Shown here in pieces: positions 1 to 46,070 of a stretch of DNA of 64,000 nt. The DNA comes from Heterodontus francisci (lineage: Eukaryota): positions 26,612,262 through 26,676,261 of the forward strand of contig NC_090413.1 in the NCBI RefSeq assembly GCF_036365525.1, in the 5' to 3' direction. The translations under genes were made by a program, and so were the position numbers. A model generated the notes under the pieces. That model did not search any database. It was not told the DNA's origin and was given only the letters and a program-made list of their open reading frames with translations. Numbering within the stretch: the first letter of the stretch is position 1; the number at the start of each line of letters is the position of its first letter.

Positions 1-1433
1 GTATAACACTGGGGTACCGTACTGGTGGGTACAGGTCTGTCACTGTACAACACTGGGGTACAGTACTGGTGGGTACAGGTCTGTCACTGTACAACACTGG
101 GGTACAGTACTGGTGGGTACAGGTCTGTCACTGTACAACACTGGGGTACAGTACTGGTGGGTACAGGTCTGTCACTGTACAACACTGGGGTACAGTACTG
201 GTGGGTACAGGTCTGTCACTGTATCGCACTGGGGTACAGTACTAGTGGATACAAGTCTGTCACTGTATAGCACTGGGGTACAGTACTAGTGGGTACAGGT
301 CTGTCACTGTATAACACTGGGGTACAATACCAGTGGGTACAGGTCTGTCACTGTATAACACTGGGGTACAGTACTAGTGGGTACAGGTCTGTCACTGTAT
401 AACACTGGGGTACAATACCAGTGGGTACAGGTCTGTCACTGTATAACACTGGGGTACAATACTGGTGGATACAAGTCTGTCACTGTATAACACTGGGGTA
501 CAACACTGGTGGATACAAGTCTGTCACTGTATAACACTGGGGTACAACACTGGTGGATACAAGTCTGTCACTGCATAACACTGGGGAACAGTACTGGTGG
601 GTACAGGTCTGTCACTGTATAACACTGGGGTACAATACCAGTGGGTACAGGTCTGTCACTGTATAACACTGGGGTACAATACTGGTGGATACAAGTCTGT
701 CACTGTATAACACTGGGGTACAATACCGGTGGGTACAGGTCTGTCACTGTGTAACACTGGGGTACAATACCAGTGGGTACAGGTCTGTCACTGTATAACA
801 CTGGGGTACAGTACTAGTGGGTACAGGTCTGTCACTGTATAACACTGGGGTACAATACCAGTGGGTACAGGTCTGTCACTGTATAACACTGGGGTACAAT
901 ACTGGTGGATACAAGTCTGTCACTGTATAACACTGGGGTACAACACTGGTGGATACAAGTCTGTCACTGTATAACACTGGGGTACAACACTGGTGGATAC
1001 AAGTCTGTCACTGTATAACACTGGGGTACAGTACTAGTGGATACAAGTCTGTCTGTATAACACTGGGGTACAATACTGGTGGATACAAGTCTGTCACTGC
1101 ATAACACTGGGGAACAGTACTGGTGGGTACAGGTCTGTCACTGTATAACACTGGGGTACAATACCAGTGGGTACAGGTCTGTCACTGTATAACACTGGGG
1201 TACAATACTGGTGGATACAAGTCTGTCACTGTATAACACTGGGGTACAATACCGGTGGGTACAGGTCTGTCACTGTGTAACAGTGGGGTACAATACTGGT
1301 GGATACAGGTCTGTCACTGTGTAACAGTGGGGTACAATACTGGTGGATACAGGTCTGTCACTGTATAACACTGAAGTACAGTACTGGTGGGTACAGGTCT
1401 GTCACTGTGTAACAGTGGGGTATGGTACAGGTC
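1..1433. repeat. 44-bp minisatellite array (~32 copies, truncated by window start) in a GIPC1 intron
   Basis: Unit GTATAACACTGGGGTACAGTACTGGTGGGTACAGGTCTGTCACT recurs every 44 nt (1, 45, 89...). ORFs 25..270 and 1343..1534 are translations of the repeat. Confidence 0.97.
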
Positions 1434-3436
1434 TAGCACCCTCTAACACTATGGTGAAGTATGTGTTCTCTGCAGCTCTAACACTGGTGGTGGCATCAAC
1501 CCAACCTCTTGTAATAATCTTGTTTCATATATAACACCTCCATCTAGTGCCAGAGTGCAGTATCACTGCACAATTTACAAACAGCCTGAAACAGCTGAGA
1601 TTTGAACTATCCTGTTCAACTCTACGTCTACATAATGATCCACTGTCATTTCCCACCAATTTGGGCAATCGACTCCCTAGCCCAGTTAAGTCCGATCCTT
1701 GTTACTTGTTCTTGCAATCCCCCCTTACCACAAGCTGCATTACCTCAGCAATTCCACTCCGGGGGAAAGTGAGCTGAGGCCAGGTGAGTTTCTGCAGACA
1801 GAAAAGAGCTATGTGAATCAGGGATAGTCACTCTGGCACAACTCAAAGCTGGTGAAGGGGACGGGGATTACAATGCAGGAGAGCATCAAAGTAGGAAAGA
1901 ATAGGAGATAAATTAAGTTGCGGCAAGGCAATGGGTTTTAAAAAGCTTGTGGATTGTACTTGGAAGGGAAGAGGGGTGGTGAGGCAGGTGCACAGTTCTC
2001 CAATTTTAAGCAGAGGACGAATGATTCAGCATGGAAGATAGTGCACTGGACCCCCTTCTTTAAAACTCAGAGGATACGGGTGGTAGAAGAGCACATTGAG
2101 ACAAACATTGAGACAAACAAACATTGAGACAAAGATTTTGAGGCAGTTCCAAACTTACTCCCCCAAAAGGTTGTGGATGCTGAGGGTCAACTGAAATTTA
2201 AGACAGAGATTATAGATTTTCTTTGTTGGGTAAGGGTATCAAAGGATAAATGGGGTTAAGATAGGGGTCAGCCATTATCTAATTGAATAGCGGAACAGGC
2301 TCGAGCGGCTGAATGGCCTTTTACAGTTCCTAAATTCAACGCAGCAATGGCTGAGGTTTGGGAGAAGCAAATGTACTGGCCCAGGAACAGGCATTGTTAT
2401 TCTAAACAGATCTTGGCTGCCATAATTTAGACTAAACTCGTAGGTGAGCCTTAACTCCTGTATACTCTTAAGTGTGGCCTAAGATAGCAAACAGAGAAGG
2501 ATTCTTTGGCTGCTGGACCTACTCTGTGCCTCCCTGTGCTCAGAAGCAGAAGAGAAGCAGAACTCATGACAGCCCCAACAACCAAGGCTACGTATCTGTG
2601 ATTACTGAAGGAGCTAACTAGTTTGACTGAAGCTCTACACAGCTCTGAAACAAAACTGTTGGAACAGCTGACTGACAGCTATCGAGATTTATGAATTTGG
2701 ATAACTGCCAGCTACATTCAGAAGAAGCTAACTAGCCACATACACGGCTGAACAAATCCCATGGTATATTTTTGTTTTAAATATGTGGCTTGACTCCTCT
2801 CTCAATGCAACAGCCTTAGTGACTAGTAGTGCTTGTGACATAGCATTGAGTTAGGCTGGTGATGATTAACTTGCATTTCATAGAATATAAACACTGAAAA
2901 GGCCATTTGTCCCTGGTCTGGCTCTTTGAAAGAGCCATCCAATTAGTCCCACTCCCCTGCTCTTTCCTCATAGCCCTGCAAATGTTTTCTTTTCAAGTAT
3001 CTATCCTATGCCCTTTTGAAAGTTACTATTGAATCTACTTCCACTACCCTTTCAGGGAGCACATTCCAGATCACAACAACTCACTGCATTAAAAAAAAAC
3101 TCATCTTCCTTCACTCCGTTGCCAATTATCTTAAATCTGTGTCCTCTCAATTGTGACTGAAGAAGGAAGAAGCCTTCCTTGGCTTTCGGGATCGGATGGG
3201 AGGTAGCAAATCCACTTCAGACATATTAACAGCCCCTCGGGACAGGTTAGAGAAGAGTTACTGTTTCCGGTGTTATTTTTTTTTTAAATCTAAAAGGCTG
3301 CTTCACCCTTCCTAACCCTGCCCCAGAAATATCAGTACCAGTTAGGCCTGTGAAACCTGCATGACTGCTCCCTCTAACTCTGGGTGGGTTCCCATGATCA
3401 ATGTTAGTGCTGGGGAATTCACTCCTGCTGTCAGTT

Positions 3437-9329: not shown

Positions 9330-10268
9330 GTCATTTTTATAAATGACCTGGAAGAGGGTGTAGAAGGGTGGGTTAGCAAATTTGCAGATGACACTAAGGT
9401 CGGTGGAGTTGTGGATAGTGCCGAAGGATGTTGTAGGGTACAGAGGGACATAGATAGGCTGCAGAGCTGGGCTGAGAGATGGCAAATGGAGTTTAATGCG
9501 GAAAAGTGCGAGGTGATTCACTTTGGAAGGAGTAACAGGAATGCAGAGTACTGGGCTAATGGGAAGATTCTTGGTAGTGTAGATAAACAGAGAGATCTTG
9601 GTGTCCAGGTGCATAAATCCCTGAAGGTTGCTACCCAGGTTAATAGGGCTGTTAAGAAGGCATATGGTGTGTTAGCTTTTATTAGTAGGGGGATCGAGTT
9701 TCGGAGCCACGATGTCATGCTGCAGCTGTACAAAACTCTGGTGAGACCGCACCTGGAGTATTGCGTGCAGTGCTGGTCACCGCATTATAGGAAGGACGTG
9801 GAAGCTATGGAAAGGGTGCAGAGGAGATTTACTAGGATGTTGCCTGGTATGGAGGGAAGGTCTTACGAGGAAAGGCTGAGGGACTTGAGGTTGTTTTCGT
9901 TGGAGAGAAGGAGGAGGAGAGGTGACTTAATAGAGACATATAAGATAATCAGAGGGTTGGACAGGGTGGATAGTGAGAGTCTTTTTCCTCGGATGGTGAT
10001 GGCAAACACGAGGGGACATAGCTTTAAGTTGAGGGGTGATAGATATAGGACAGATGTGAGAGGTAGTTTCTTTACACAGAGTAGTAGGGGCGTGGAACGC
10101 CCTGCCTGCAACAGTAGTAGACTCGTCAACTTTAAGGGCATTTAAGTGGTCATTGGATAGACATATGGATGAAAATGGAATAATGTAGGTCAGATGGTTT
10201 CACAGGTCGGCGCAACATCGAGGGCCGAAGGGCCTGTACTGCGCTGTAATGTTCTAATTCTAATAAAA
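9330..10268 (+). mobile_element. Young CR1-clade (HER1-like) LINE, 5'-truncated; RT C-terminal region largely open
   Basis: FADDTK motif upstream of ORF 9411..10145 (LQSWAERWQMEFNAEKCEVIHFG...LYKTLVRPHLEYCVQ); 3' UTR ending GGCCTGTACTGCGCTGTAATGTTCTAATTCTAA. Nested in an older CR1 fragment. Confidence 0.92.
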
Positions 10269-11977: not shown

Positions 11978-12710
11978 GTGTGACTCAGTTGGTTGCATGC
12001 GCCTTCTGAGTCAGGAGGTTGTGGGTTCGCGCCCCGCAATGTAGATTGATATCCCCAATGCAGTACTGAGAGAGTGCTGCACTGGCAGAGGTGCTGGCTT
12101 TTTAAAAATTCATTCATGGGATGTGGGCGTCGCTGGCCAGGCCAGCATTTATTTCCCATCCCTAATTGCCCTTGAGAAGGTGGTGGTGAGCTGCCTTCTT
12201 GAACCGCTGCAGCCCATGTGAGGTAGGTACACCCACAGTGCTGTTAGGAAGGGAGTTCCAGGATTTTGACCCAGCAACAGTGAAGGAATGGCGATTATAG
12301 TTCCAAGTCAGGATGGTGTGTGACTTGGAGGGGAACTTGCAGGTGGTGGTGTTCCCATGTATTTGCTGCCCTTGTCCTTCTAGTTGGTAGAGGTCGCGGG
12401 TTTGGAAGGTGCTGTCTGAGGCTGTCTTTCAGCTGGGACACTCTCTTAGGGGGTCGTAAAAGATCCCACAGCACAATTTCAAAGAAGAGTGTGTTCTCTC
12501 CAGTGCCCTGCCCAATATTTACTCCTCAACCAATACCTTAAAAACAAATAATCTGCCCACATTTACATGAATGTTTGTGGGAGCTTGCTGTGCGAAATAT
12601 CAGCTGCTGCGTTTCCTGCAACCGTGATTAAACATCAAAAGTACTTCATTAGCTCTAAGTGTCTTGGGATGACCCAAGTTTGTGAAAGGCACTATATGAA
12701 TGCAAATTTT
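11978..12710 (+). mobile_element. DeuSINE (SacSINE1-like) interrupted by an antisense LINE 3' fragment (~12100-12418)
   Basis: tRNA head at 11978 and Deu domain resuming at ~12420 with tail GAAAGGCACTATATGAATGCAA. The insert matches the 3' end of the 35131-38277 LINE. Confidence 0.8.
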
Positions 12711-15072: not shown

Positions 15073-15412
15073 GGGCGGCACAGTGGTTAGCACCGCAGCC
15101 TCACAGCTCCAGCGACCCGGGTTCAAATCTGGGTACTGCCTGTGTGGAGTTTGCAAGTTCTCCCTGTGTCTGCGTGGGTTTCCTCCGGGTGCTCCAGTTT
15201 CCTCCCACATGCCAAAGACTTGCAGGGTGATAGGTTAATTGGCCATTATAAATTGCCCTAGTATAGGTAGGTGGTAGGGAAATATAGGAACAGGTGGGGA
15301 TGTGGTAGGAATATGGAATTAGTGTAGGATTAGTGTAAATGGGTGGTTGATGGTCGGCACAGACTCGGTGGGCCGAAGGGCCTGTTTCAGTGCTGTATCT
15401 CTAAAAAAAAAA
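15073..15412 (+). mobile_element. HE1-type V-SINE (tRNA head, V domain, CR1 tail)
   Basis: GGGCGGCACAGTGGTTAGCAC head, V-domain GTGTGGAGTTTGCAAGTTCTCCCTGTG, tail GGCCTGTTTCAGTGCTGTATCTCTAAA; near-TSD CAG(T/A)CAACA. Confidence 0.9.
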
Positions 15413-16184: not shown

Positions 16185-16680
16185 CTTGAGGTCAGAAGCT
16201 GGGTATTCTGTAGTGGGTAACTCAAACATTTCATAATCTTTCCACTACCTACAAATCAGGAGTGAAGGAATACTCTCCACTTGCTTGGATGGATGCAGCT
16301 TCACCACCACTCAAAAAGTTCCCACTTCCTCCAACAGTGACACACCATGCCTGCAGTGCATACCATTTACAAGATGCACTGCAGCAACTCGCCAAGTCTC
16401 CTTCGACATCACGTCCCAAACCCACAGCCTCCACCCCTTAGAAGGACAAGGGCAGCAAGTGCATAGGAACACCAACTCCAAGTTACACACCATCTTGACT
16501 TGGAAATATATCACTGTTCCTTCTTGGTTGCTGGCTCCAAAATCCTGAAACTTCCTCCCTAACAGCACTGTGGGAGCACATTCACTACACTGACTGCAGC
16601 GATTCAAGAAAGCAGTTCACAACCACCTTCTCGAGAGCAAATAGAGATGAGCAATAAATGTTGGGCTTGCCAGCGTGTCC
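16185..16680 (+). mobile_element. Decayed 3' fragment of the LINE family seen at 35131-38277
   Basis: Shares TACCAT.TACAAGATGCACTGCAGCAAC and the GCAATAAATG.TGG.CTTGCCAGC 3' end. Confidence 0.7.
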
Positions 16681-17999: not shown

Positions 18000-18333
18000 A
18001 GAGTCATAGAGCAATACAGCACTGAAACAGGCCCTTCGGCCCACCGAGTCTGTGCCGACCAACAACCACCCATTTATACTAATCTGACATGAATCCCAAA
18101 TTCCCTACCATATCCCCACCATTCTCCTCCCACCTACCTACACTAGGGGCAATTTACAATGGCCAATTTACCCATCAACCTGCAAGTCTTTGGCCGTGGG
18201 AGGAAACCGGAGCACCCAGCGGAAACACACGCGGTCACAGGGAGAACTTGCAAACTCCACACAGGCAGTACCCAGAATCGAACCCGGGTCGCTGGAGCTG
18301 TGAGGCTGCGGTGCTAACCACTGCGCCACCCCT
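18000..18333 (-). mobile_element. HE1-type V-SINE in the DNAJB1 intron between coding exons 2 and 3
   Basis: Reverse complement of the same head, V domain and tail as 15073-15412; nested in a CR1 fragment. Confidence 0.9.
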
Positions 18334-22386: not shown

Positions 22387-22716
22387 GGGCAGCACAGTGG
22401 CGCAGTGGTTAGCACCGCAGCCTCATAGCTCCAGCGACCTGGGTTCGGTTCTGGGTACTGCCTGTGCAGAGTTTGCAAGTTCTCCCTGTGACCGCGTGGG
22501 TTTCCGTCGGGTGCTCCGGTTTCCTCCCACAGCCAAAGACTTGCAGGTTGATAGGTAATTGGCCATTGTAAATTGCCCCTAGTGTAGGTAGGTGGTAGGA
22601 GAATGGTGGGGATGTGGTAGGAATATGGGATTAATGTAGGATTAGTATAAAACGGGTGGTTGTTTGTTGGCACAGACTCGGTGAGTCGAAGGGCCTGTAT
22701 CTCTAAAATAAAATAA
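22387..22716 (+). mobile_element. HE1-type V-SINE in the DNAJB1 intron between coding exons 1 and 2
   Basis: Full tRNA head, V domain and (TAAAA)n tail; inserted into an antisense CR1 3' fragment (~22280-23100). Confidence 0.9.
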
Positions 22717-25476: not shown

Positions 25477-26372
25477 TGTCAGAAGTGGGGATGTTCGCTG
25501 ATGATCGCACAATGTTTAGCACCATTTGCGACTCCTCAGATACCGAAGCAGTCATTGTAGAAATACAGCAAGACCTGGACAATATCCAACCTTGGGCTGA
25601 TAAGTGGCAAGTAACATGCACACCACACAAGTGCCAGGCAATGACCATCTCCAACAAGAGAGAATCTAACCATCTCCCCTTGACATTCAACGGCATTAAG
25701 ATTGTTGAATCCCCCACTATCAACATCCTGGGGATTAACATTGACCAGAAACTCAACTGGAGTAGCCATATAAATACCGTGGCTACAAAGGCAAGTCAGA
25801 GGCTAGGAATCCTGCAGCGAGTAACTTACCTCCCGACTTCCCAAAACCTGTCCACCATCTACAAGGCACAAGTCAGGAGTGTGATGGAATACTCTCCAGT
25901 TGCCTGGATGGGTGCAGTTCCAACAACACTCAAGAAGCTCGACGCCATCCAGGACCAAGCAGCCTGCTTGATTGGCACCCCATCTACAAATAATCATTCC
26001 CTCCACCACAGACGCACAGTGGTAGCAATGTGTACCAAAGATGCACTGCAGCAATGCACCAAAGCTCCTTAGATAGCACCTTCCAAACCGACAACCTCTA
26101 CCAATGGTGGGACAAGGGCAGCAGATGCATGGGAACACCACCACCTGCAAGTTCCCCTCCAAGGTCACACACCATCCTGACTTGGAACTATATCGCCGTT
26201 CCTTCACTGTCGCTGGGTCAAAATCCTGGAACTTCTTTCCTAACAGCACTGTGAGTGTACCTACCCCACATGGACTGTAGCAGTTCAAGAAGTCTGCTCA
26301 CCACCACCTTCTCAAGGGCAATAAAATGGTGGCGTAGCCAGCAATTCCCACATCCCATGAACAAATAAAAAT
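25477..26372 (+). mobile_element. 5'-truncated copy of the 35131-38277 LINE family (RT C-terminus and 3' UTR)
   Basis: SEVGMFADD...WADKWQV...IYKAQVRSVMEYSPVAWMG; 3' end CCCACATCCCATGAAC. Confidence 0.9.
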
Positions 26373-29304
26373 AATAATTTTTTTGAATCAGTCCAGGTGA
26401 ATTTAAAAGAATCTGAAGTAGTCCCTCAACCAACACCATTAAAACAAAATTTGAATTAACTTGGACACTGATCGGATTGCTGGTTGTGGGAGCTTACTGT
26501 GCACAGACTGGCATCTGCAGAAGCTGACAAAACACAGACCACACTTCGAGAAAATTAACAACCCTGGCACTTTTTTGGGACAGCTCGAGGACATACAAGG
26601 TGCTATATCAATGCCTATATTTAATTCTTATGTTGTCCACTTCAGATCCAAACAGTCCAGGTACAATCTCCTCATTCATATACCTCCAGAACACCCAATG
26701 GCAAACACTTACAACCGTCTTTCAAATAGAACCGGACTCAGGATTATATCACTGAATCAACAAATAGGGAAGGTACAAGTTTCTTTTTGTACCTCATTGA
26801 ACTAGTGCAGGATGCTTATAGGCTAAGAAGGGATCTCAAATCTGAAAGGCAGGCCTCCATTGGTCTAAAAACAGAAATAATCTTTCAGATAAGGCAAGAG
26901 ACTGTTGTGCTTGTTTTTGTTTAGGCAAGACAGCTGTGAGAAGCACTTTGTACAGACAGTAAACTCTCCCTTTGACCTTCCTTCCAGCAAATTCAGTATC
27001 AGAATAGAGAAGTGTAAAAGAAAGGTGAACAACTGGACTTCAATTTTACAACAGTTTTTGTAGAACCCTCAGTTTTTCTTTTGAATTTTTCCTTGTGAGC
27101 AACGGGAGAGAGATCCACTTGTCACTCGTCACTACTTACTCAAAGTCAGCTGCTCTCCAACGACAGGTGCCTTGAGGCCTCAATTTCACACCTTAAACCA
27201 ATTTCCCTGTTCCTCTCACCTTCTCTAATATTTCCCCCAGAAATCGTTTGCTTTCAAAATTAAACTTAAAATAAAATCGAATTAGAATGAGGAAAGACAC
27301 TGTCTGCCTATGCTCTTCCCTCACGTACACCCCCACCTCTCAGAGAGGAATACAAATGAAATCTACCTCAGTTAGCCTTTTGAAATTTATGCACATATGA
27401 AAATGAAGGGCAGGAATGGTTGGTTTATCAAGCCTACCCCCACCCTGATAACGGCAGCAGTGTCACAACTAGAGACGTCCTCATCCCCACCCTGGCCCTC
27501 GTGTTCATTAAAATTATCTGAAGGAAAACCACTGGGCAGAAAGCATTATCCCCTGAAGTCAAATATTGTTTCATACAACTGACCCATACCATAGCATCTT
27601 GGGGAATTACACTGCACGTGCTCAGACTGTACAACCCCAATCTCAGCAGTCAAAATATCAACCTGAAATCATACAGTCTTACAGTCATCCAGGCTGAGAA
27701 GTGGAAATCTTCAATTAAAAGAAAATTCTATGTATATATTTCACAATAGCTTGATGAGATTTATAATTTAAGATTTAAAATTCTTTAAAAAGCTTATTTT
27801 AGGCCTGAAAATTTCGATTAAAGCAGGGAAAAATACAGAATGCAATTTGTGGGAACCCAGTCACCATGTTCAGGAAAACGCGTTATAAATGTGGACAGAG
27901 GAATGCAGAAGGCGGCAAAAGGTTAACACGAAACAGCGATTAAAAATTCAACAGGAAGCATGGACAGACATTAATTTTTTTTCATCAACTAGAAATACAA
28001 GCCAATCTCCTTGGTGTTACACATGGGAATTCAAGAATCAGGGGAAGGCGGTTAAGGGGCAGGGGATATTTTGGCCAGTGTGCGCGCAAATGTTATTCAG
28101 GAAATTCTATGTCAACATTGGGTTGGATAGGTGGATGGAGGAAGAGAGGTTAAAGGGTAAAGGGATACGGAAGCATGGTGGGTAAATGTCATAGGAATTG
28201 TGTGTTCCCAGGGCAGGATAAAGTCCAACATGGACTGGTTGGGCTGAACGGCCTAAGACCATGTTGCAACCTCTCTTGTATCTACAACAGTTTTCTTGGG
28301 TCAAAGTTTAGTTTTGCTTACACCAACTAAAATACAACTTGACTACTTTTATCTGATTTTTACAATGTCTGGGTTTTGTAGTCCAAAGAATATTTAACTC
28401 TCTGGTGTTCAATACAATTTACTATCCGATCCTTGATAATGAATCTGGTCACCAGCTGGACTTGGATCTCTGTCTAGGGAGCTTAGTAATCAAAATTTCC
28501 ACTGCAATTCCACTCTCTCTCACCTCACCCCCATTCCCCGCCCCCCCCCCCCCCCCCCAAAAAAGAATCTCGCCATTAAAATAGTTTTTTTTGGGGGGGG
28601 TGGGGTGCAGGTAAATCACATTATCTGCATATGCTGAGAGCTGCATCAGGTAATCTAAAATCAAAAGCTTTCCAAACCCTACAGGCTATGTGGGGATCTC
28701 AATAGGTTCTTGGTAATTTCAACAGTTGATGACTTTTTAAACATGTTGTTGCTGTTAACTAATAGTTTCGGCAACTACAGCACTTTTTCTTCCTTTGTGT
28801 AGTTGACGGCCATCCAGAGGTTATGGACGGTGTGTGCCAATATTTGCAGGAAACACCCACATAGAATACTTGAAAACTATTCCCAAATATATTGTATGTA
28901 CAAGGCGAAAGATAAAACTCACCCTGTCAGACTAAGTACAGGGATCTCTCAATTACCCACAATTGAATGCTCCTCCTTTCAGAGCACCTCCACAGCCAGG
29001 GGAAGTATATTGTGTGTCACCCCATCAGGTGCAGATATAGACTTAGCTACAGCATTTAACTACCCTTCAAACCAAAAGAAAGGGCAGTCCTGTCTGCTTA
29101 TTTCACATTGCAAAGAGACTCCTGTGAAAAGAATAGTGCATGCATCACAGAAAGGGGAATTAATTTGTGCTAATTTTAGCTGCATCAACAGGCTGATTAC
29201 ACAATAGCCCTCACCTCCATACAAGAGCTAGCTGAAAGTTTGACAACATTTTAATTGTTTAACAAAATTTCAAACTTGCAGCCATTGACTGATCACAACA
29301 CAAG

Positions 29305-29740
29305 AAGCTCAACATCATCCAGGACAAGGTACCCCATTTACCACCTTAAACATTCACTCCCTCCACCACCGACACAGTGGCAGCAGTGTGTACCATCCAC
29401 AAGATGCAGCACAGCAACTCGCCAAGGCTCCTTCGACAGCACCTTCCAGACCCGCAACCTCTACTGCTGAGGAGGACAAGGGCAGCAGGTGCATGGGAAC
29501 ACGAACACCTGAAAGCTCCCCTCCAAGTCACCCACCACCCTGACTTGGAACTATACCACCATTCCTTCACCGTCACTGGATCAAAACCCTGGAACTCCCT
29601 TCTGAACAACAATGTGGGAATGCTTTCAAAACATGAACTGCAGCAGTTCAAGGCAGTAGCTCAACACCACCTTCTCAAGGGCAATTAAGGATGGGCAATA
29701 AATGCTGGCCTTGCCAGTGATGCCCACATCTTGTGAAAAA
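29305..29740 (+). mobile_element. 3' fragment of the same LINE family
   Basis: ACATTCACTCCCTCCACCACCGAC...GGGCAATAAATGCTGGCCTTGCCAGTGATGCCCACATC. Confidence 0.8.
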
Positions 29741-34567: not shown

Positions 34568-35130
34568 GAAACACCAACAGTTACCTTAAAAATAGACAAT
34601 TGGTGTGTATGGGTTACCAGACCTTTTACCACTAGGCATGTTTTATGGGCGTTTTAAGAGAGATTACATTTTCTTCCTAAGAACAAAAAGTACTAAAGAT
34701 TGATATTGAAATCAGAAATTATGGGCATGGGCATGTTAGGGATATACTGAGCAGCAAAGTACTTGTGCAGGAAACCTGTTATTCAAGAAAAACTGCGGGA
34801 TTCTGGTAGAGGTTTAGACTTGTATCATGCTGATTCAGAAGCAATCCTCAGAAGAAACACTCTCAGAGTTGAACTATGTTCTATTGTAGCATGTTTGACA
34901 ATCTGAGAAAATGAATGTTTCATATTGGTGGTTGCTCAGACTTCTGAAAATACAAGAATAACTTGTCATTTATCTCATTGTTATTTGTGGGATCTTGCTG
35001 CACAAATTAGCTGCCTGTGATGACACCTCAAAAGTGACTAATTGGGTGTGAAGCCCTTTGGGATGTCTTGAGGGCAGGAATGGCAATATTAAAATGGAAG
35101 TCTTTCTGTTGTTCTACATTGAAGGTGAAT

Positions 35131-38100
35131 TTTTTTTTTTCATTCATGGGATGTGGGCATCGCTGGCCAGACCAGCATTTATTGCCCATCCCTAATTGCC
35201 CTTGAGAAGGTGGTGGTGAGCTGCCTTCTTGAACTGCTGCAGTCCTTGTGAGGTAGGTACACCCACAGTGCTGTTAGGAAGGGAGTTCCAGGATTTTGAC
35301 CCAGCGACAGTGAAGGAACGGTGATATCGTTCCAAGTCAGGATGGTGTGTGACTTAAATGGGAACTTGCAGGTGGTGATGTTCCCACGCATCTGCTGCTC
35401 TTGTCCTTCGAGGTGGTAGAGGTCATGGGTTTGGAAGGTGCTGTCTAAGGAGCCTTGGTGCATTGCTGCAGTGCATCTTGTAGATGGTACACACTGCTGC
35501 CACTGTGCGTCAGTCGTGGAGGGAGTGAATGTTTGTAGATGGGGTGCCAATCAAGCGGGCTGCTTTGTCCTGGATGGCGTCGAGCTTCTTGAGTGTTGTT
35601 GGAGCTGCACCCACCAGGCAAGTGGAGAGTATTCCATCACATTCCTGATTTGTGCCTTGTAGATGGTGGACAGGTGGGGAGTCAGGAGGTGAGTTACTCA
35701 CCGCAGGATTCCTAGCCTCTGACCTACTCTTGTAGCCACGGTATTTATATGGCTACTCCAGTTCAGTTTCTGGTCAATGGTAGCCCCTAGGATGTTGATA
35801 GTGGGGGATTCAGCGATGGTAATGCCATTGAATGTCAAAGGGAGTTGATTAGATTCTCTCTTGTTGGAGATGGTCATTGCCTGGCACTTGTGTGGCTTGG
35901 GAATGTTACTTGCCACTTAGCAGCCCAAACCTGGATATTGTCCAGGTCTTGTTACATTTTTACCCAGACTGCTTCAGTATGTGAGGAGTCGTGAATGGTG
36001 CTGAACATTGTTCAATCATCAGCGAACATCCCCACTTCTGACCTTATGATTGAAGGAAGGTCATTGATGAAGCAGCTGAAGATGGTTGGGCCTAGGACAC
36101 TACCCTGAGGAACTCCTGCAATGATGTCCTGGAGCTGAGATGATTGACCACCAACAACTATCTTCCTTTTCACTAGGTATGACTCCAACCAGCAGAGGGT
36201 TTTCCCCCTGATTCCCATTGACTCCAGTTTTGCTAGGGCTCCTTGATGCCATACTCGGTCAAATGCTGCCTTGATGTCAAGGGCAGTCACTCTCACCTCA
36301 CCTCTTGAGTTCAGCTCTTTTGTCTATGTTTGAACCAAGGCTGTAATGAGGTCAGGAGCTGAGTGGCCCTGGTGGAACCCAAACTGAGCGTCACTGAGCA
36401 GGTTATTGCTAAGCAAGTGCTGCTTGATGGCACTGTTGATGACACCTTCCATCACTTTACTGATGATTAAGAGTCGACTGATGGGGTGGTAATTGGCCGG
36501 GTTGGACTTGTCCTGTTTTCTGTGTACAAGACATACCTGAGCAACTTTCCACATTGCAGGGTAGATGCCAGTGTCATAGTTATACTGGAACAGCTTGGCT
36601 AGGGGTGCGGCAAGTTCTGGAGCACAGGTCTTCAGTACTATTGCCGGAATATTGTCAGGACCCATAGCCTTTGCATTATCCAATGCCTTCAGTTGTTTCT
36701 TGATATCACGCGGAGCGAATCGAATTGGCTGAGGTCTGGCATCTGTAATGCTGGGGACTTCAGGAGGGGGCCGAGATGGATCATCAACTCGGGACTTCTG
36801 GCTGAAGATTGTTGCAAATGCTTCTACCTTATCTTTTGCACTGATGTGCTGGGCTCCCCCATCGTTGAGGATGGGGATATTTGTGGAGCCACCTCCTCCA
36901 GTTAGTTGTTTAATTGTCCACCATCATTCATGACTGGATGTGGCAGGACTGCAGAGCTTAGATCTGATTTGATGGTTATGGGATTGCTTAGCTCTGTCTA
37001 TTGCATGCTGCTTATGCAGTTTGGCATGCAAGTAGTCCTGGGTTGTAGCTTCACCAGGTTGACACCTCATTTTGAGGTATGCCTGGTGCTGCTCCTGGCA
37101 TGCCCTCCTGCACTTTTCATTGAACCAGGGTTGGTCTCCTGGCTTGATGGTAATGGTAGAGTGGGGGATATGCCGGGCCATGAGGTTACAGATTGTGGTT
37201 GAGTACAATTCTGCTGCTGCTGATGGCCCACAGTGCCTCATGGATGCCCAGTTTTGCATCACTAGATCTGTTCGAAATCTATCCCATTTAGCACGTTATC
37301 CTCAAGGTGAAGGTGGGACTTCGTCTCCACAAGTACTGTGCGGTGGTCACTCCTACCAATACAGTCATGGACAGAAGCATCTGCGGCAGGCAGATTGGTG
37401 AGGACAAGGTCAAGTATGTTTTTCCCTCGTGTTGGTTCCCCCACCACCTGCCACAGACCCAGTCTAGTAGCTATGTCCTTTAGTACTCGGCCAGCTCGGT
37501 CAGTAGTGGTGCTACCGAGCCACTCTTGGTGATGGACATTGAAGTCCCCCACCCAGAGTACATTTTGTGCCCTTGCCACCCTCAGCGCTTCCTCCAAGTG
37601 GTGTTCAAAATGGAGGAGTACTGACTCATCAGCTGAGGGAGGGCGGTAGGTGGAAATCAGTAGGAGGTTACCTTGCCCATGTTTGACCTGGTGCCATGAG
37701 ACTTCATGGGGTCTGGAGTCGATGTTGAGGACTCCCAGGGCAACTCCCTCCCTACTGTAGACCACTGTGCCGCCACCTCTGCTGGGTCTGTCCTGCCGGT
37801 GTGACAGGACATACCCAGGGATAGTGATTGCAGTGTCTGGGACATTGTCTGTAAGGTATGATTCCGTGAGTATGACTATGTCAGGCTGTTGCTTGACTAG
37901 TCTGTGGGACAGCTCTCCCAACTTTGGCACAAGCCCCCAGATGTTAGTAAGGAGTGCTTTGCAGGGTCGACAGGGCTGGGTTTGCCGTTGTCGTTTCTGG
38001 TGCCTAGATCGATGCCGGGTGGTCCATCCAGTTTCATTCCTTTTTATTGACTTCGTAGCGGTTAGGTACAACTGAGTGGCTTGCTGGGCCATTTCAGAGG

Positions 38101-38277
38101 GCATGTAAGAGTTAACCACATTGCTGTGGGTCTGGAGTCACATGTAGGCCAGACCAGGTAAGGACAGCAGATTTCCTTCCCGAAAGGACATTAGTGAACT
38201 AGATGGGTTTTTAGAAATACCCTTGGTCTCTGGGTTACTAGTCCAGTGATAATACCACTATGCCACCACCTCCCCCA
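35131..38277 (-). mobile_element. Full-length but decayed CR1/L2-group LINE: tRNA-like 5' head, APE endonuclease plus RT, no ORF1, poly(A) tail
   Basis: EN motifs (TNIWGL, PDIVILTES, WVGDFNVHH, LDLVLTN, SDH); RT motifs (QFGF, LDIKAAFDRVWH, GVPQGSVLGP, FADD) broken by frameshifts. TGAAT on both flanks (35126-35130, 38278-38282); joining the flanks restores a host CR1 fragment. Confidence 0.9.
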
Positions 38278-38659
38278 TGAATGGCAAAAGAACCAGAGGC
38301 GGCATGAGGGAAAACTTATTTATGCAGCATATGGTTAAGATCTGGAAAGTACTGCCGGAGCATGTGTTGGAGGCAAATTCAATCGAGGCTTTCAGAAGGG
38401 AATAGGATAATTACAGGGCTGCGGAGAAAAGGCAGGGGAGTGGGACTAGCTGAATTGCTGTTGCAGAAAGCCAGCATAGACATGATGGGCTGAATGGCCT
38501 CCTTCTGTGCTGTAATCATTCTATGATTCTGTGCATGCTAATCTCAAATAGAGAGCTCACACTTCATAGTTTAAAGGCAATTTTCATTAAAATAAGAAGT
38601 ACTTTATATGTCACTGATAAAATAGCCTCAAAGTGCCAGAATACTACAACTACATACTA

Positions 38660-40729: not shown

Positions 40730-41215
40730 ATCATCTAATCTCATTCCCAATCTAATATCAAGTCCCAATCCCAATCTAATATAAAATCCCATTCCCAATC
40801 TAATATAAAATCCCAATCTCAATCTAATATAAAATCCCAACCTAATATAAAATCCCATTCCCAATCTAATATAAAATCCCATTCCCAACCTAATATAATA
40901 TTCCATTCCCAACCTAATATAAAATCCCAATCCCAATCTAATATAAAATTCCATTCCCAATCGAACATAAAATCCCAATTCCAATCTAATATAAAATCCC
41001 AACCTAATATAAAATCCCATTCCCAATCTAATATAAAATCCCAATCCCAACCTAATATAAAATCCCAATCTAATATAAAATCCCATTCCCAACCTAATAT
41101 AAAATCCCATTCCCAATCTAATATAAAATTCCATTCCCAATCTAATATAAAATTCCATTCCCAATCTAATATAAAATCCCAATTCCATTCCCAATGTATT
41201 GATAATAAAATCCCA
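40730..41215. repeat. 24-bp/18-bp minisatellite (CCCAATCTAATATAAAATCCCATT)n
   Basis: About 20 units with 18-nt deletion variants, directly upstream of the CpG-rich C19orf67 promoter region. Confidence 0.95.
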
Positions 41216-45732: not shown

Positions 45733-46070
45733 AGTCATAGAAAGATACAGCACTGAAACAGGCCCTTCGGTCCACCGAGTCTGTGCTAACCAACAACAAC
45801 CCATTTATACTAATCCTACATTAATCCCATATTCCCTACCACATCCCCACCATTCTCCTACCACCTACCTACACTAGGGGCAATTTACAATGGCCAATTT
45901 ACCCATCAACCTGAAAGTCTTTGGCTGTGGGAGGAAACCAGAGCACCCGGCAGAAACCCACACAGACATAGGGAGAACTTGCAAACTCCGCACAGGCAGT
46001 ACCCAGAACTGAACCCGGGTCACTGGAGCTGTGAGGCTGCGGTGCTAACCACTGCACCACTGTGCTGCCC
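45733..46070 (-). mobile_element. HE1-type V-SINE
   Basis: Reverse complement of the full head, V domain and tail. Confidence 0.9.

Follow-up and report, generated by a model that had tools for sequence, protein, structure and literature searches.

A 3.3-kb LINE family, present at high copy number in this shark genome, carries a tRNA-like head joined to its one ORF, which encodes an endonuclease and a reverse transcriptase, and the family is depleted in T-runs on its sense strand. T-runs stop RNA polymerase III (Pol III); to our knowledge a tRNA-like promoter head is normally confined to short non-coding SINEs. The combination of a tRNA promoter head on a coding element with avoidance of T-runs therefore suggests a protein-coding retrotransposon that is likely made by Pol III. 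Judged from sequence, it is rather probable that the family is an autonomous shark LINE that is transcribed by Pol III and whose RNA is translated without normal cap-dependent scanning. Features of the copy at the locus and of its relatives within the window (the whole stretch of 64,000 nucleotides analysed) are listed in Table 1.

Table 1. Positions in the window of the tRNA-headed LINE, its parts, its target duplications and related copies.
Feature	Position	Strand	Remarks
Decayed full-length copy of tRNA-headed single-ORF LINE	35131..38277	-	3147 nt
TGAAT target duplication, left copy	35126..35130	+	5 bp
TGAAT target duplication, right copy	38278..38282	+	5 bp; then older CR1 3' fragment to ~38530
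5' half of tRNA-like head	38213..38277	-	~111-nt deletion at about 38215
A box	38255..38265	-	
Anticodon arm, AGT loop	38230..38246	-	stem like tRNA-Ser(AGA), loop like tRNA-Thr(AGT)
Conserved non-coding core, common to partner SINE	38066..38215	-	majority 176-325; candidate translation element
Predicted hairpin, 7-nt anticodon-like loop	38072..38097	-	loop holds ATG 38092-38090 and codon 38086-38084
Single ORF, broken in locus copy	35192..38092	-	majority: 975 codons after amber position
APE-type endonuclease domain	37343..37945	-	PF03372, PF14529 (Pfam)
Reverse transcriptase core	36015..36509	-	PF00078 (Pfam); FADD motif 36026-36015
3' tail, common to partner SINE	35131..35205	-	last codons, stop, AATAAA 35183-35178, A-tail
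5'-truncated copy of LINE family	25478..26372	+	87% to element positions 2236-3145; no T4
Short 3' fragment of LINE family	12109..12421	-	92%
Older 3' fragment of LINE family	29295..29730	+	80%
Older 3' fragment of LINE family	16251..16675	+	77-85%

An earlier, sequence-only reading described the locus as a single 3.15-kb insertion with TGAAT on both flanks whose removal restores a host CR1 fragment, and the coordinates agree. When the empty site is joined with one TGAAT deleted, 20 of 27 CR1 matches run 8–16 nt over the join, and when both TGAAT are retained no CR1 match spans it at a 15-nt cut-off. Among 37 family copies no consistent target duplications were seen, just scattered matches of 4–9 nt. 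The locus copy shares 95.7% identity with the majority sequence of the family, and its ORF is disrupted by stops and a 28-nt deletion. Its A box and anticodon arm lie where that reading had placed them. The missing B box it had reported is a real absence from this copy but not a trait of the family: a copy-specific deletion of ~111 nt (majority positions 64–174) took away the B box, the 3' side of the long variable arm and an AT-rich spacer, and other copies retain the B box GGTTCGAATCC, which is exact in 24 of 38 aligned rows.

The joining of the tRNA head to the ORF is confirmed as a family trait and is not unique to the locus copy. The junction of the body with the ORF has 10,018 exact matches in the host genome (against 41,908 for the 3' end) and is found in two subfamilies, 24 of 29 copies recovered from the endonuclease interior extend to the common head, and head and ORF are united at 21 of 30 loci chosen by position. 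Copies are anchored at the 3' end, truncated at the 5' end and carry a simple tail, as expected of a LINE; the four truncated copies in the window accord with this, the tail being an A-tail. The family also has an APE endonuclease and a reverse transcriptase in one frame, as an autonomous LINE should. In contrast to two-ORF CR1/L2 elements, no copy examined has an ORF1 upstream of this frame, and no longer, ORF1-bearing copies were found; as had been claimed, there is no room for an ORF1, with ~300 nt ahead of the frame, 5' ends within ~5 nt of one another and unrelated upstream flanks in all distinct loci. Searches of the published literature found no description of a tRNA-headed LINE family.

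Comparison of the head with the tRNAs of the host genome gives 57 identities with tRNA-Ser(AGA) and 52 with tRNA-Thr(AGT), and its proposed likeness to tRNA-Thr is thus based on the AGT anticodon, the whole head being equally near tRNA-Ser. ARAGORN calls no tRNA within the window but does call one in 12 of 37 family heads and in the young majority sequence; because about one in three intact heads is taken for a tRNA-Thr gene, counts of shark tRNA genes may be inflated. An Rfam search of six loci returned only three weak tmRNA T-arm matches, all below cut-off. A tRNA-derived SINE (SINE2) is defined by a 5' head that is related to tRNA and contains A and B boxes, as the head of the family does, but such elements are also short and non-coding, which is true of the 400-nt partner SINE alone (the LINE without its ORF; 3,754 exact matches to the same-head junction) and not of a 3.3-kb LINE with a selected frame. 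In the tree of SINE and LINE heads, which bears on which of the two gave rise to the other, only 5 of 48 branches are starred, and 6 of the 14 rows labelled 'old LINE' are really young copies. The body of the family was also considered as a Deu domain like that of SacSINE1 and this was rejected: published Deu motifs are absent, and alignment to the body of a host Deu-type SINE is no better than shuffles (247/1000). The tail gives 136/1000 shuffles, and the host Deu-type SINE is a separate family. No resemblance to UCON3 or Meta domains was seen by eye.

T-run depletion was assessed against shuffles and against other LINEs. The majority sequence has no TTTT and four TTT. Within the frame there are four T3 against 12.9 expected, and none of 5000 synonymous shuffles preserving codon usage has so few; in the same shuffles 2.1 T4 are expected against none observed (P=0.08), and the lack of T4 on which the earlier claim rested is thus a weak signal alone, while that of T3 is strong. 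At codon boundaries, none of 44 NTT codons is followed by T and none of 28 TTN codons follows a T. Degenerate terminators number 1 on the sense strand against 6.5 expected, and 30 against 31.4 on the antisense strand. The older subfamily likewise has no T4. None of 64 control LINE frames is without TTTT, and the host CR1 has five T4 and one T5; among the comparisons, one AT-rich control frame has a T3 z of -3.16, and degenerate terminators are mildly low in host CR1 as well (16 vs 23.2, 11/1000 shuffles). The depletion is strand-specific, goes beyond base and codon composition, is present in two subfamilies, and exceeds that of the controls. Counts given earlier for the sense strand of the locus copy (one TTTT, about ten TTT, many A4+) compare well with ours of one T4 (37610), 11 T3+ and 16 A4+, with 10 C4+ and 8 G4+, and the 5'-truncated second copy is free of TTTT as claimed.

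At the 3' end, the majority sequence has AATAAA at position 3244, and copies other than that at the locus have a run of T1–T5 ahead of the A-tail; T4–5 is present in 11 of 61 LINE ends, ~40 nt past AATAAA, and T1 in 38 of 61. AATAAA, a variable terminal T-run and an A-tail form the pattern of T+ SINEs, but mutation of the tail could give the same result, and a SINE subfamily that has no consensus terminators likewise grows T-runs in its short A-tails (PMC8466645, in the part of the text available).

The start of translation is less simple. RNAs made by Pol III are uncapped and poorly translated, and eight ATGs ahead of the in-frame ATG make this a poor leader for scanning. The statement that there is no obvious ATG is wrong for the locus copy, in which an in-frame ATG (GAAATGG) is followed by CAG in the hairpin loop and is open; in most other copies this codon is TAG, two codons past the ATG (27 of 38 aligned copies, and 16 of 30 in a separate set chosen by position). 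Subfamilies differ by only 2.8% in the core but by 11% at fourfold sites, and the leader keeps its frame at 17 of the 22 loci that could be measured, and also where the subfamilies differ by a 3-nt indel. The core is strongly conserved and a hairpin lies where the ORF begins, but shuffled sequences fold as well as the core does (z +0.46), which gives no structural support for IRES activity. Two other starts were rejected: an out-of-frame ATG at majority position 354, as a frameshifted start, is missing from the older subfamily, and an in-frame ATG in one old copy (L012) is private to it.

In a rival reading labour is split: Pol III makes the RNA that is copied, and capped transcripts that Pol II makes by reading through the same or sister copies supply the protein. 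The eight upstream ATGs would hinder capped read-through RNA too, and purifying selection in copied lineages, seen among copies as 39 synonymous and 29 non-synonymous shared non-CpG variants, needs a linkage of RNA to protein; we think this division fairly unlikely, even though it accounts for T-run avoidance and sharp 5' ends without translation of uncapped RNA, ~10,000 headed copies provide many chances of host read-through, and stop-free variants of the amber codon recur (non-T in 17 of 74 LINE loci).

A different possibility is that Pol II transcribes an ORF1-less LINE that has acquired a tRNA or SINE head as a passive leader, Pol II promoter or processing signal, with T-poverty of other cause. 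The sense strand is indeed T-poor overall (20%), but 11 control frames with less than 24.5% T still carry 2–13 T4 runs each, and the loss of T-runs is confined to one strand and in excess of composition. Processing is argued against by the 5' ends of copies, which lie ~5 nt before the predicted acceptor stem, and by G.A mismatches in that stem, neither of which fits release by RNase P; AATAAA at majority positions 119 and 343 is awkward for Pol II. Weighing the other way are the existence of single-ORF CR1-group LINEs of ~3.3 kb (Zenon, in the available text of PMC6740152), faster divergence of the head between subfamilies (17%) than of fourfold sites (11%), and the good Kozak context of the ATG at majority position 299. 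We regard Pol II transcription of this kind as unlikely.

Whether the protein matters to the element can be judged from its ORF. Between subfamilies pN/pS is 0.18, with differences at 12 of 876 second codon positions against 45 of 409 fourfold sites, and catalytic motifs are intact in the majority sequence. The ORF is under purifying selection, which supports autonomy and largely refutes a non-autonomous 'long SINE', in which a LINE body that has been fused to the head of a SINE is carried in trans by another LINE, with the ORF as passenger. The amber codon right after the ATG in most copies, the lack of ORF1 and the failure to recover an intact copy (there are stops in all 38 aligned copies, and a 993-aa open frame in copy C23 was not reproduced from its sequence) would suit such an element, but the maintained frame of the leader would not, and the host CR1 protein is just 26% identical to that of the family and has a different tail; we consider it very improbable. 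That a SINE merely happens to lie beside a truncated LINE at the locus, for all the abundance of same-head SINEs, is refuted by 10,018 identical junctions in two subfamilies and has next to no probability. The suggestion of a candidate Pol III-driven autonomous LINE is thus upheld in part, through the union of head and ORF, the lack of ORF1, T-run depletion and the selected ORF, and needs correcting as to Thr identity and lack of an ATG. Each of the three findings that the earlier reading had said would refute it was looked for, and none of them was obtained.

In the reverse transcriptase tree the family lies outside the branch, supported at 99/99, that holds the host CR1 and is thus not a canonical vertebrate CR1; the family groups weakly (92/90) with invertebrate-type proteins P0001–P0004 in this tree without named clade references. 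The host CR1 resembles the family in its APE endonuclease and reverse transcriptase, interspersed distribution and similar age, but differs in protein sequence, branch and its ordinary T-run content. Matches in a search of solved structures were limited to L1 ORF2p and the R2 reverse transcriptase. R2 too is a non-LTR element with a single ORF, and, as is proposed for the family, its RNA differs from a normal capped Pol II mRNA and requires unconventional translation; but Pol I transcribes R2 together with rRNA, and R2 is site-specific and has a restriction-like endonuclease. Among 80 metagenome loci of distant relatives there were four ARAGORN calls, none at the 5' end of the ORF, and at one locus (L253) an A/B-box match ~1 kb upstream.

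Several described elements share parts of this organization. Zenon, like the shark family, is ~3.3 kb long with a single EN-RT frame and an A-tail, and it has a short partner, Persaeus, that combines its 5' and 3' ends, but Persaeus, which bears the 5' end of Zenon, is described in the available portion of PMC6740152 as having no tRNA homology or Pol III promoter. The bipartite SINEs Bov-tA, SINE2-1_ACar and CoeSINE4 combine a tRNA head with LINE-derived 5' and 3' parts, as does the 400-nt partner SINE; in these it was a LINE with an internal deletion that received the head, and the autonomous LINE is headless, whereas the shark protein-coding element is itself headed (PMC5786205, PMC4494074, as far as the available text goes). 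The T+ SINEs B2, Dip and Ves have a Pol III head, AATAAA, a variable terminal T-run and an A-tail as the shark family does, but are short, non-coding and mammalian (PMC8466645, available part). SacSINE1 and other Deu-SINEs are like the partner SINE in being from shark, with a tRNA head, ~400–460 nt length and a LINE-type tail (PMC5499810, available part).

For an autonomous LINE transcribed by Pol III, a pathway can be proposed. TFIIIC would bind the A and B boxes, and Pol III would start ~10 nt upstream of the A box, cross 3.3 kb because nothing stops it, and terminate either in the final T-run or in flanking DNA, with the RNA perhaps polyadenylated as in T+ SINEs. Ribosomes may enter via the 150-nt core, which is conserved, and begin translation at the ATG hairpin or immediately after it, through amber readthrough, stop-free source copies or a non-AUG codon. 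By target-primed reverse transcription the protein would then copy the RNA that encodes it, and it could also mobilise the partner SINE.

In the working split between these classes, LINEs code and use Pol II, and SINEs use Pol III and cannot encode protein (PMC5786205, available text). On the evidence of its sequences we lean slightly towards the broader view that the shark family is the first autonomous protein-coding Pol III retrotransposon, in effect a self-mobilising SINE, with an uncapped 3.3-kb RNA translated via the core and the anticodon-like hairpin, codons purged of terminators, and a history of repeatedly swapping 5' ends with, or spawning, its own SINEs across sharks and rays. If true, this would break the split of coding Pol II LINEs from non-coding Pol III SINEs and would provide a natural route from Pol III RNA to protein. 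It would also let a SINE arise directly from its own LINE through deletion, and would be a case in which the shaping of codon usage by avoidance of terminators can be tested.

Deleting one of the flanking TGAAT copies restores an older CR1 fragment around the copy in the window, and 20 of 27 CR1 matches span the repaired join by 8–16 nt, in agreement with the single insertion proposed in the sequence-only reading. The copy contains an APE endonuclease and a reverse transcriptase (RT) by Pfam, although its ORF is broken. Its sense strand has one T4 and 11 T3+ runs, with 16 A4+, 10 C4+ and 8 G4+ runs, close to the one TTTT, about ten TTT and common A4+ runs counted by eye. ARAGORN finds no tRNA in the whole window because this copy is deleted for positions 64–174 of the family majority sequence; the loss includes the B box, of which that reading had seen no clean example. 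A 330-bp repeat elsewhere in the window has A and B box-like sequence at one end and is probably another SINE, possibly of HE1 type.

Features of the window and of the family majority sequence (about 3.3 kb)
Feature	Coordinates	Strand	Remarks
tRNA-headed LINE copy	window 35131-38277	minus	TGAAT on both flanks
44-bp minisatellite	window 1-1422		32 copies, 93% matches
24-bp tandem array	window 40737-41195		~19 copies
330-bp repeat	window 15073-15403, 18002-18329, 22387-22701, 45733-46060		4 copies, 87-92% identity
RT fragment of another LINE	window 9336-9947		distant, 25% to family protein
A box	majority 11-21
B box	majority 75-85
Body	majority to ~325
975-codon frame	majority 308-3232
3' UTR and A-tail			3' UTR 60 nt

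Searching the H. francisci assembly (6.0 Gb, 2,306 contigs) with the endonuclease interior gave 2,306 candidates, and the best 30 of 40 scored loci include 29 besides the window copy. Among these 29, 23 have their 5' end no more than 5 nt from where the head starts and one more has it at position 25; the other five are truncated, and three of these five represent a single duplicated insertion. Upstream of the head, no sequence is common to any two distinct loci in this set, so an ORF1-bearing extension was not seen, as expected from the earlier view that there is no room for ORF1. The head was reached in 26/29 loci from a 5' query, and majority position 30 or less in 21/30 loci sampled by position rather than by score. 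The body–ORF junction has 10,018 exact matches and the LINE-specific 3' end has 41,908, and short internal-deletion forms make up 2/30 junction loci sampled by position. L398 and L401 are internal-deletion forms of the LINE whose breakpoints differ again (majority 335/3155 and 359/3141). The tRNA head is thus a trait of the family and not of one copy, and the element is real and unusual. Forty copies were fetched, selected for having the head, and the 37 of full length (3,040–3,653 nt) were combined with the window copy in the majority sequence, to which copies are 93.8–97.5% identical; all 38 have stops. An older subfamily shares this layout, with about 80% identity per copy.

The description of the head as tRNA-Thr-like holds only in part. 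In 12/37 heads and in the young majority, ARAGORN calls a 91-nt tRNA-Thr(AGT) whose variable arm is long and whose acceptor stem contains G.A mismatches, but in alignments to the Thr, Lys and Ser tRNAs of this genome only, Ser(AGA) scores 66 and Thr(AGT) 63. The same assembly carries about 50 tRNA-Ser(AGA)-type genes in tandem with a 2.15-kb period (G000:C34:12636732-12762173). In a metagenome contig, a stretch that resembles A and B boxes (L253, 183-236) precedes a LINE frame by about 1 kb.

The ORF has evolved under constraint. Between the young and old majorities non-CpG pN/pS is 0.18 (32/1,137 versus 50/327 sites), differences occur at 12/876 second codon positions and 45/409 fourfold sites, and non-CpG variants common to at least four of the 38 young copies are synonymous in 39 cases and non-synonymous in 29. 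The majority protein has catalytic motifs, and together these comparisons indicate that source elements required the encoded protein.

Contrary to the impression that there is no obvious start, majority 299 (window 38092) holds an ATG that is in frame with the ORF and has a favourable context, with eight ATGs upstream of it. It is followed by GCC and then by a third codon that is TAG in 27/38 copies, TAG in 16 and GAG in nine of 30 positional loci, and CAG in the window copy. The first base of this amber codon is non-T in 17/74 LINE loci and neighbouring bases vary in 0–4, which shows that stop-free lineages recur. The leader frame is kept in 17/22 measurable loci, also over a 3-nt indel between subfamilies. 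Within the core (majority 176–325) 4/144 sites differ, four times below fourfold sites, and its end is a predicted hairpin whose 7-nt anticodon-like loop holds the amber codon; overall, the core folds no better than shuffles. Readthrough, stop-free source copies or a non-AUG codon are each possible routes to initiation.

A partner SINE, essentially the LINE without its ORF, gives 3,754 exact matches to the body end-to-tail join. Its majority (20 loci) is identical to the LINE at 313/321 positions over 1–321 and 76/77 over 3222–3298, and its junctions are of several types. We placed 51 5' regions in a tree, in which support is mostly low and six rows are mislabelled. SINEs join LINEs of their own age in it, among the young (99/97) as well as among the older (97/94 and 98/95). 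This pairing by age points to repeated derivation or exchange, in a direction that the tree does not give. The body is not a Deu domain, its alignment to the Deu-type SINE of this genome not exceeding that of shuffles; that SINE (L408–L432) is a separate family with 3,250 exact motif matches.

At the 3' end AATAAA occurs at majority 3244, about 40 nt short of the element end. Over the 16 nt that lead up to and into the A-tail, 38 of 61 LINE ends have T1 as their longest T-run, eight have T2, four T3 and 11 T4–5, and 4/11 SINE ends have T4–6. This is consistent with the AATAAA, T-run and A-tail pattern of polyadenylated Pol III SINEs, but is supportive only, because short tails in general also gain T-runs (both described in the accessible text of PMC8466645).

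Depletion of T-runs is pronounced. The majority frame has four T3+ runs versus 12.9 +/- 2.5 in synonymous shuffles (0/5,000 equally low), with normal A, G and C runs, and TTT crosses a codon boundary in 0/44 and 0/28 chances. The sense strand has one degenerate terminator where 6.5 are expected, and the antisense strand has 30 where 31.4 are expected. The old majority (3,329 nt) has no T4 and five T3. Among 80 metagenome LINE loci 64 have a frame of at least 450 aa, and all 64 contain T4, including 11 with less than 24.5% T (2–13 T4); T3 observed/expected is 0.54–1.72 in these controls and 0.22 in the family. In the majority sequence of host CR1, built from 25 loci and coding for 869 aa, there are 26 T3, five T4 and one T5. 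The proposed avoidance of T-runs is therefore borne out for T3 and against other LINEs, but T4 by itself (0 versus 2.1, P 0.08) differs clearly only when third positions are drawn freely (0 versus 4.3, P 0.008). Against a Pol III interpretation we count that CR1 degenerate terminators are also mildly low (16 versus 23.2), that one control reaches z -3.16 (family -3.57), that the controls are mostly AT-rich and distant, and that T4 per kb is 1.4 in raw old copies, insertions included, versus 0.18 in young ones.

The most likely explanation, which we hold with moderate confidence, is that the head drives Pol III transcription of the entire element, that the RNA would be translated by internal entry, and that the protein would copy its own RNA in cis and the partner SINE in trans. 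Architecture, selection on the frame and T-run depletion are observed here, and the polymerase, the route of translation and polyadenylation of the RNA are inferred. Alternatively, Pol III could make the template and Pol II transcripts the protein, which seems unlikely; a LINE transcribed by Pol II, in which the head is a relic and the T-poverty has some other cause, is about as unlikely. Given the constraint on the frame, an ORF carried as a passenger is very improbable, and with so many body–ORF junctions a chance adjacency of SINE and LINE can be dismissed.

Shark and ray gene models (Heptranchias, Mobula, Pristiophorus, Heterodontus) match element protein fragments at 71–83%, and a 1.1-kb piece of the element is present in 23 of 24 listed runs (seven organisms and one metagenome). 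Contigs of other organisms cross the body–ORF junction, and the SINE junction appears as a loose end in two runs. The protein shares 43% identity with a metagenome protein, 38% with P0002 and 26% with host CR1; in an RT tree the family stands apart from host CR1 and weakly with the invertebrate-type proteins P0001–P0004. No description of a tRNA-headed autonomous LINE or its motifs was found in the literature searched, including accessible parts of PMC5499810, PMC5786205, PMC7245038, PMC4824008, PMC3747384, 10.1101/2025.06.08.657570, PMC6740152, PMC11481361, PMC1845163, PMC8466645 and PMC4494074; Repbase, Dfam and subscription papers lay outside this search, and a database entry may exist.

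Intact heads, such as L006 1332-1422, are scored as tRNA-Thr(AGT) genes by ARAGORN. Sharks are reported to have high tRNA locus counts (10.1101/2025.06.08.657570, in the part accessible), and heads called as tRNA genes may swell such counts. If Pol III transcription together with translation were confirmed, the element would be categorically new.
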